Shown here in pieces: positions 19,609 to 19,684 of a DNA stretch of 45,530 nt. The number at the start of each line of letters is the position of its first letter. Position 1 is the stretch's first letter. Source of the stretch: a virus (Duplodnaviria > Heunggongvirae > Uroviricota > Caudoviricetes); the IMG/VR virus record IMGVR_UViG_2721755643_000004, one strand, 5' to 3'. The notes under the pieces are model-generated. The model had not been told where the DNA came from and made no database searches. It was given only the letters and a program-made list of their open reading frames with translations. Position numbers and translations under genes: made by a program.

Positions 19609-19684
19609 GCCGACTTAGCTCAGCAGGCAGAGCAACTGACTTGTAATCATCAGGTCACCAGTTCGATTCCGGTAGTCGGCACCA
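19609..19684 (+). tRNA. tRNA-like, Thr(UGU)-like with imperfect anticodon stem
   Basis: Acceptor GCCGACT/AGTCGGC, D- and T-arms intact; anticodon arm ACUGA-CUUGUAA-UCAUC pairs only 3 of 5. Confidence 0.55.

Follow-up and report, generated by a model that had tools for sequence, protein, structure and literature searches.

Phage tRNA-Thr genes and tRNA-cutting nucleases

The Old protein of phage P2, the effector of the classic P2-lambda interference, kills by cutting the host tRNA-ThrU (PMC12445682, NAR 2025). This tRNA is the main target of P2 Old, whose cuts follow C28 and C40, in CNG motifs that pair with each other at positions 28-30 and 40-42 (PMC12445682). Phage-encoded tRNA-Thr(UGU) genes rescue cells because their products resist cleavage by Old, and in the case of tRNA-Thr6 resistance requires that the CNG motif be altered (G30C/C40G) and that the 27-43 pair be lost as well (U43A); singly, these changes give no protection, nor does C28U/G42A alone (PMC12445682). 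The tRNA-Thr of the lambdoid phage 21 also protects against Old and has a shortened anticodon stem (PMC12445682).

For the PARIS nuclease AriB, tRNA-Thr(UGU) is again a prime target and is cut between C40 and A41 (PMC12409363). AriB cleaves E. coli tRNA-Lys significantly less well when U16 of its D-loop is changed to C (PMC12409363), and the tRNA-Lys, tRNA-Thr and tRNA-Asn variants with which phage T5 neutralises PARIS carry substitutions at recognition positions, C16 among them, as well as changes in the cleavage site itself (U39A, A41C) (PMC11464382, PMC12409363). The HepS protein of prophage Gifsy-1, finally, cuts tRNA-Thr upon sensing a lambda-type tail protein. Since Old, AriB and HepS all cut tRNA-Thr, this tRNA emerges as a repeated target in conflicts involving lambdoid phages, and tRNAs that escape such nucleases are an established kind of phage gene, reported in 2025 from work on P2 Old and on PARIS.

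Lambdoid phages are also the setting of the ileZ-argN-argO arrays of Stx phages, which lie downstream of Q in the late region, include Ile2(CAU) and Arg(UCU) members as does the array examined below, and are usually explained as a supply of tRNAs for rare codons. To our knowledge, these arrays do not include a Thr gene derived from thrU or a Gly gene derived from glyT.

A captured thrU gene in a lambdoid prophage

The window, by which we mean the whole 45,530-nucleotide stretch of DNA analysed (IMG/VR record IMGVR_UViG_2721755643_000004), is a lambdoid prophage with an array of four tRNA genes between its Q-like antiterminator and its lysis cassette (Table 1). The third gene of this array is the subject of the present analysis. 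On a reading to which we assign about an even chance, it would be a thrU-derived tRNA-Thr(UGU) that escapes tRNA-cutting nucleases and is encoded in the late region of the prophage.

Table 1. Features of the window, with the positions of the tRNA array and of the altered nucleotides in its tRNA-Thr gene
Feature	Coordinates	Strand	Basis or remark
Integrase	1-1314		
CI-like repressor	8276-9007		
Replication genes	13136-16405		
Q-like antiterminator, upstream of the array in the same orientation	16659-17030	+	PHROG phrog_79, E=3.7e-44
DNA methyltransferase, directly upstream of the array	18354-19412	+	PHROG phrog_67; PGAP at identical locus
tRNA-Ile (Ile2 type), anticodon CAU	19453-19528	+	ARAGORN; PGAP in identical FDAARGOS_943 locus; Rfam 71.2 bits
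tRNA-Arg(UCU)	19530-19606	+	ARAGORN; Rfam 56.4 bits
tRNA-Thr(UGU), thrU-derived	19609-19684	+	ARAGORN; Rfam 59.5 bits; K-12 thrU alignment
D-loop position 16, C replacing U	19624	+	Alignment to K-12 thrU
D-loop position 20, C replacing U	19628	+	Alignment to K-12 thrU; no known role
Anticodon stem 5' strand, A27 C28 U29 G30 A31	19635-19639	+	Same as thrU; holds the 5' CNG, C28-U29-G30
Anticodon UGU, followed by A37 A38	19642-19644	+	ARAGORN and hand parse; 36-UAA-38 kept
tRNA positions 42-43, UC replacing GU	19650-19651	+	Breaks 28-42 and 27-43; CNG C40-A41-G42 becomes CAU
tRNA-Gly(UCC)	19688-19762	+	ARAGORN; Rfam 64.9 bits; glyT identity
Class II holin, opening the lysis cassette that follows the array	20443-20658	+	PHROG holin families; PGAP

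Alignment to E. coli K-12 indicates that this gene is a phage-captured copy of host thrU. The two share 72 of 76 bases and differ by exactly four substitutions, U16C, U20C, G42U and U43C; the acceptor stem, the anticodon loop, the variable loop and the T arm, including an A52.C62 mismatch, are identical to those of thrU. The adjacent tRNA-Gly(UCC) gene is 100% identical to host glyT. As the host gene order is thrU-tyrU-glyT-thrT, the Thr-Gly pair of the array derives from this operon with tyrU left out.

The position of the array bears on its expression. Downstream of the holin gene follow lysis, terminase and lambda-like head and tail genes, and phage 21 carries a tRNA-Asn and a tRNA-Thr in the equivalent slot, annotated directly after pR'/tR' and before the holin. 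By analogy, late transcription is presumed for the window array, whose place behind the Q antiterminator and ahead of the lysis genes makes its synthesis in lytic growth probable. A scan of 10 early ORFs of the window detected neither Gam, the Old trigger, nor Bet or Exo. Elsewhere in the prophage, the anti-repressor region holds two tandem units of an isrK-like sRNA and a C4 antisense RNA (11422-11610 and 11791-11973; Rfam 62-84 bits), both of which are spanned by a mechanically called 667-aa ORF with two regulator-like halves (10393-12396).

The first-pass annotation regarded the flanking Ile2, Arg and Gly genes as intact suppliers of rare-codon tRNAs. All three do look intact, and the idea of codon supply is reasonable in that ACA, AGA and GGA are commoner in the prophage (15.2, 7.6 and 13.3 per 1000 codons, with AUA at 6.1) than in the flanking host genes (7.2, 2.5 and 9.0, with AUA at 5.0). 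ACA is used about twice as often as in these host genes, and loss of thrU would accordingly hurt the prophage. The same codon preferences suit a rather unlikely alternative, in which the gene merely provides an extra tRNA-Thr(UGU) to an ACA-rich phage and the changes at positions 42 and 43 are a tolerated neutral variant that arose once by a templated patch, spread by hitch-hiking and recombination, and plays no role in defence evasion.

Structure of the altered tRNA-Thr

A hand parse of the anticodon arm gives ACUGA-CUUGUAA-UCAUC, in which Watson-Crick pairs form at only three of the five stem positions, 29-41, 30-40 and 31-39 (two A-U and one G-C), leaving A27·C43 and C28·U42 unpaired. The disrupted stem reported by the first-pass annotation is thus borne out, as is its expectation that a normal Thr-UGU tRNA would have UCAGU on the 3' side, which is exactly what host thrU has. 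The gene therefore falls short of the five-bp anticodon stem of a thrU-type elongator. The alternative offered at that stage, an unusual 4-bp stem with an enlarged loop, finds no register in the sequence beyond the three standard pairs; the sole competing helix joins 29-35 to 43-49 and hides the anticodon.

Outside positions 42-43, no disabling lesion was seen in the acceptor, D or T arms. All three had been described as canonical, which needs amending for the T arm in view of its A52.C62 mismatch; because the functional host thrU has the identical mismatch, we do not take it as damage. Also retained are the 3' CCA, the 36-UAA-38 element, and G1-C72, C2-G71, G35 and U36, which we take to be the identity elements for ThrRS. 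The 36-UAA-38 element serves t6A37 (PMC13276492). The gene is readily detected: ARAGORN calls it Thr with anticodon TGT, and its Rfam score on RF00005 is well above the gathering score of 29. Tools of this kind had been named as a check on the idea of a decayed tRNA, and the fact that ARAGORN and Rfam both call a tRNA-Thr partly overturns that idea.

It might also be imagined that the loosened top of the anticodon stem alters decoding, for example through a broader wobble that would let a single tRNA read additional ACN codons, an idea that draws on work on 27-43 mutants. The location of the mismatches is what speaks for it. The anticodon loop is identical to that of thrU, the remaining ACN codons are already served by host tRNAs and nothing in the data calls for such an effect; we consider this reading highly improbable.

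A 67-codon open frame with a TTG start (19570-19773) crosses the Thr and Gly tRNA genes and is open only since two in-frame TAG codons are lost, one through U16C and one through U43C. We considered whether it might be a real gene and judged it a coincidence: the frame is broken in alleles that share the altered arm but have U16, and its start lies inside the Arg tRNA. Removal of GTAG motifs as a common cause of the substitutions was likewise set aside, as the nuclease determinants fit positions 16, 42 and 43 better; we know of no system that recognises a GTAG motif.

Substitutions at determinants of Old and AriB

The replacement of GU by UC at positions 42-43 affects both of the features on which resistance of tRNA-Thr6 to Old depends. 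Through G42U, the change destroys the 3' half of the paired CNG (C28-U29-G30 with C40-A41-G42), the site of cleavage by Old-type Toprim nucleases; C40-A41-G42 reads C-A-U and C28 is left without a partner. The anticodon stem is at the same time shortened by loss of the 27-43 and 28-42 pairs. Two adjacent substitutions in this way supply both published resistance factors, the combination on which resistance to Old, with ACA codons still readable, depends (PMC12445682). The gene is accordingly a phage-encoded UGU tRNA with an altered CNG motif and a lost 27-43 pair, the features found in Old-resistant tRNAs, in a G42U+U43C combination that is not among the published mutants (PMC12445682). Host thrU, in contrast, has a 5-bp stem and the complete paired CNG.

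For AriB, the correspondence is partial. The site at which it cuts, with U36-A-A-U-C on one side and A41 on the other, is identical to that of thrU, unlike in the phage T5 variants, whose cleavage site is itself changed. Since positions 36-41 are unchanged, an escape from AriB could be due only to the shorter helix or to the substitution in the D-loop. The gene does have C16, the substitution whose effect is published for tRNA-Lys, and by analogy U16C may add resistance to PARIS AriB.

One of the closest tRNAs with documented protection is tRNA-Thr21 of phage 21 (OL657228, 39671-39746). It is likewise a UGU tRNA of a lambdoid phage, located between Q/pR' and the holin, with a mismatch at 27.43 (G27.A43) that shortens the stem, an altered 28-42 pair and a similar Rfam score (61.5 versus 59.5 bits). 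It differs in having another body and a G+C-rich 4-bp stem (GUCGC/GCGAA), whereas the window gene is thrU with four changes and a 3-bp stem; its protective effect was shown experimentally (PMC12445682), whereas the window allele is known from its sequence. Another, tRNA-Thr6, is a thrU-like UGU tRNA that also combines one CNG change with loss of 27-43 (PMC12445682). There, G30C/C40G keeps the 30-40 pair and is joined by U43A, whereas in the window G42U breaks the 28-42 pair and is joined by U43C; tRNA-Thr6 also differs at about nine other positions of its acceptor and T arms.

A 27.43 mismatch combined with an altered stem occurs in at least four phage lineages, that of the window included. 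The T4-like phage P922 has exactly the three Thr6 arm changes. In the jumbo phages PBECO4 and SD-2_S15, a tRNA whose body matches thrU nearly base for base has the stem AUCCC/GGGAA, which lacks a CNG motif and is mismatched at A27.A43. Phage 21 completes the set. This convergence is a direct observation, as are the changes in the window gene, their positions and their recurrence. The neutral variant considered above would leave unexplained both the repeated loss of 27-43 in unrelated phage lineages and the match of the changed positions to those that determine cleavage by Old and to the D-loop contact of AriB. In another jumbo phage, BF17 (L162 141-194), a copy follows the thrU sequence through position 74, has the 3' end ACAA in place of ACCA, and is followed directly by a second tRNA-Thr(UGU) with a 5-bp stem (AUCGC/GCGAU) and no CNG.

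Stability of the altered arm

The main caveat to nuclease escape is that the arm is predicted to be weaker than that of any proven escape tRNA. By nearest-neighbour energies, the isolated arm of the window gene is predicted to be unfolded (0.0 kcal/mol), against -2.4 kcal/mol for thrU, -3.5 for Thr21 and -1.8 for thrU given the Thr6 arm. The cloverleaf is predicted to lie 7.9 kcal/mol above the alternative fold that pairs 29-35 with 43-49, a hairpin of 7 bp in which U43C turns G35.U43 into the stronger G35-C43. This alternative fold says little, because it is already the predicted minimum for thrU, by 1.3 kcal/mol over the cloverleaf, and because the energies ignore what stabilises real tRNAs. 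The 9-mer UCAGUAGGU occurs twice in thrU, at positions 12-20 and 39-47 (L004 601-676).

These predictions favour decay, one of the two readings offered by the first-pass annotation: the mismatches would be damage in a redundant thrU copy of a degrading prophage, with a misfolded or non-functional product. In line with it, the Rfam score falls from 73.8 bits in thrU to 59.5, the prophage has an IS600-like element inserted in its early-left region (4498-5771), and a related prophage in FDAARGOS_943 is riddled with insertion sequences and pseudogenes, several more of which replace the immunity and replication region of the window. A decayed tRNA is nevertheless not the best reading of the gene. 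A score of 59.5 bits is close to that of the protective phage 21 tRNA-Thr and above that of host tyrU (53.4), the lesion is confined to positions 42-43 in a gene that both detectors call a tRNA, and phage tRNA-Thr genes of proven function share a 27.43 mismatch. The recurrence of the arm, described below, weighs in the same direction, and we regard decay as quite unlikely. Nuclease escape is more likely than a dead gene, and we infer that the window allele would resist cleavage, be expressed and charged, and decode ACA.

Recurrence of the altered arm

In a set of 5,426 complete E. coli genomes, most of the four-tRNA array is present in about 601 and the exact Thr allele of the window in seven. 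A probe for the arm with UC at 42-43 (hereafter UC arm) matched 41 places in 29 of these genomes, with up to three copies in one genome. It is a minority allele, found in roughly 4% of the prophage-borne thrU-like copies in E. coli (41 of roughly 1,000). Among species-representative genomes, the UC arm appears apart from E. coli only in E. albertii. The exact allele is absent from the sequenced-phage collection, in which the closest match is SerU-LTIIb, with C16/C20 and an intact stem. A non-host base at 42 was seen in 30 IMG/VR contigs, all of which also have C43 (28 UC and 2 CC); these contigs are mutually related and do not count as independent samples. Recurrence of the identical arm, in 29 of the E. 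coli genomes and in 28 contigs of IMG/VR, shows that the broken stem is not a feature of chance or sequencing.

The UC arm is found on at least seven distinct tRNA sequences in viral contigs, and strain M19 of E. coli has an eighth version. Its thrU-type bodies comprise U16/U20, C16/U20 (with or without C59) and C16/C20, and further backgrounds are a variant with extra changes in L014 and two kinds of chimera with a 5' half of the phage 21 type. Five types of array contain the arm, namely Ile2-Arg-Thr-Gly, Ile2-Arg-Thr-'Val', Ile2-Thr-Arg-Gly, a longer array with Arg(CCG), and Thr-Gly or Asn-Thr-Gly. It is not restricted to one decaying lineage. In a degenerate scan of thrU-like tRNAs (at least 120 loci, frequencies from which are rough), the UC arm is by far the commonest stem-breaking allele of the family, and other stem changes mostly keep pairing, through compensated 5-68 or 6-67 pairs or G.U wobbles. 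Such a pattern, on at least seven backgrounds and in five array types that include a sequenced phage, JLK-2012, speaks against damage to a redundant copy.

Several of the same data can be read in favour of a neutral variant. Some 96% of the prophage copies in the E. coli set retain an intact stem, and the presence of up to three copies of the arm per genome suggests spread between resident prophages. Sister arrays also offer a possible donor for a templated patch, TCATCAGG, which lies in the D-arm of a neighbouring tRNA about 106 nt upstream of the homologous TCAGTAGG; similarly, TCACCAG, 8 nt downstream, could be the donor for the CC allele. No IMG/VR contig combines G42 with a changed base 43, and none of the 5,426 E. 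coli genomes is matched by probes for the single-step intermediates UCAGC and UCAUU. A single templated step may have produced both changes, which weakens any argument from these missing intermediates. A neutral origin leaves unexplained, on the other hand, that U16 is absent in 27 of the 30 contigs with a UC or CC arm, as compared with roughly a quarter of thrU-like copies generally.

Under the nuclease-escape reading, a more specific and tentative proposal can be made, which we hold somewhat less probable than the general one: the UC arm may be a selected, near-minimal escape allele, which with U16C needs just two neighbouring changes in the host target and is invisible to Old-type and possibly to PARIS-type Toprim tRNases, that moves as a recombination module between lambdoid arrays.

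Sister arrays and chimeric genes

Natural chimeras link the 5' half of Thr21 to an arm of the window type. In these genes, the 5' strand of the acceptor stem and the D-arm are those of the phage 21 tRNA-Thr, and the remainder is of thrU type with the UCAUC arm. They are located in Asn-Thr-Gly arrays and were found in phage JLK-2012 (L138 2495-2570), in L139, in E. albertii (L143) and in 18 IMG/VR contigs. Their Rfam scores are 47-49 bits, ARAGORN misses them and PGAP annotates them in some genomes only.

That chimeric versions of the arm escape ARAGORN counts in favour of decay, as do the damaged tRNAs of other sister arrays. The M19 Thr copy has an extra D-stem mismatch and is unannotated. 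In the O121-type array (L018 3080-3151, L008 2795-2866), the Thr allele is the same as in the window and the fourth tRNA is a glyT copy with the anticodon loop CUUACAG, called Val(UAC), that lacks one base of the 3' acceptor strand and is probably a decaying gene. Unannotated second tRNAs belong to the same class of evidence.

The second tRNA of some sister arrays (L002 3079-3155, L016 2922-2998, L140 2402-2478) has the scaffold of the window Arg(UCU) gene with the anticodon UUU; position 33 is C in place of U, and position 73 varies, with U among the bases present there. Depending on the genome, PGAP annotates this gene as tRNA-Lys or not at all. It could be a decaying gene, or an anticodon-switched decoy or replacement, an idea suggested by the fact that tRNA-Lys(UUU) is the main PARIS target. 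Longer arrays (L009 10454-10527, L014 3220-3293) have, beside Arg(CCG), a tRNA-like gene with a short loop to which ARAGORN assigns a two-base anticodon.

Implications for lambdoid tRNA arrays

Should nuclease escape prove to be the wrong reading, the gene would be an ordinary tolerated or decaying copy of thrU. If it is correct, the determinants of two recently described tRNA-cutting defences would be isolated in a natural allele that differs from the host target by as few as two to four bases. Under the more specific proposal of a selected, mobile escape allele, the tRNA arrays in the late operons of lambdoid and Stx-like prophages would be at least in part counter-defence cassettes, in the conflict between P2 and lambda, in addition to their role in rare-codon supply. 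Nuclease escape would also change how the tRNA arrays of lambdoid prophages are read, those of pathogenic E. coli included, and the induction and spread of such prophages in strains with P2-like or PARIS systems could depend on the tRNA-Thr allele that they carry.
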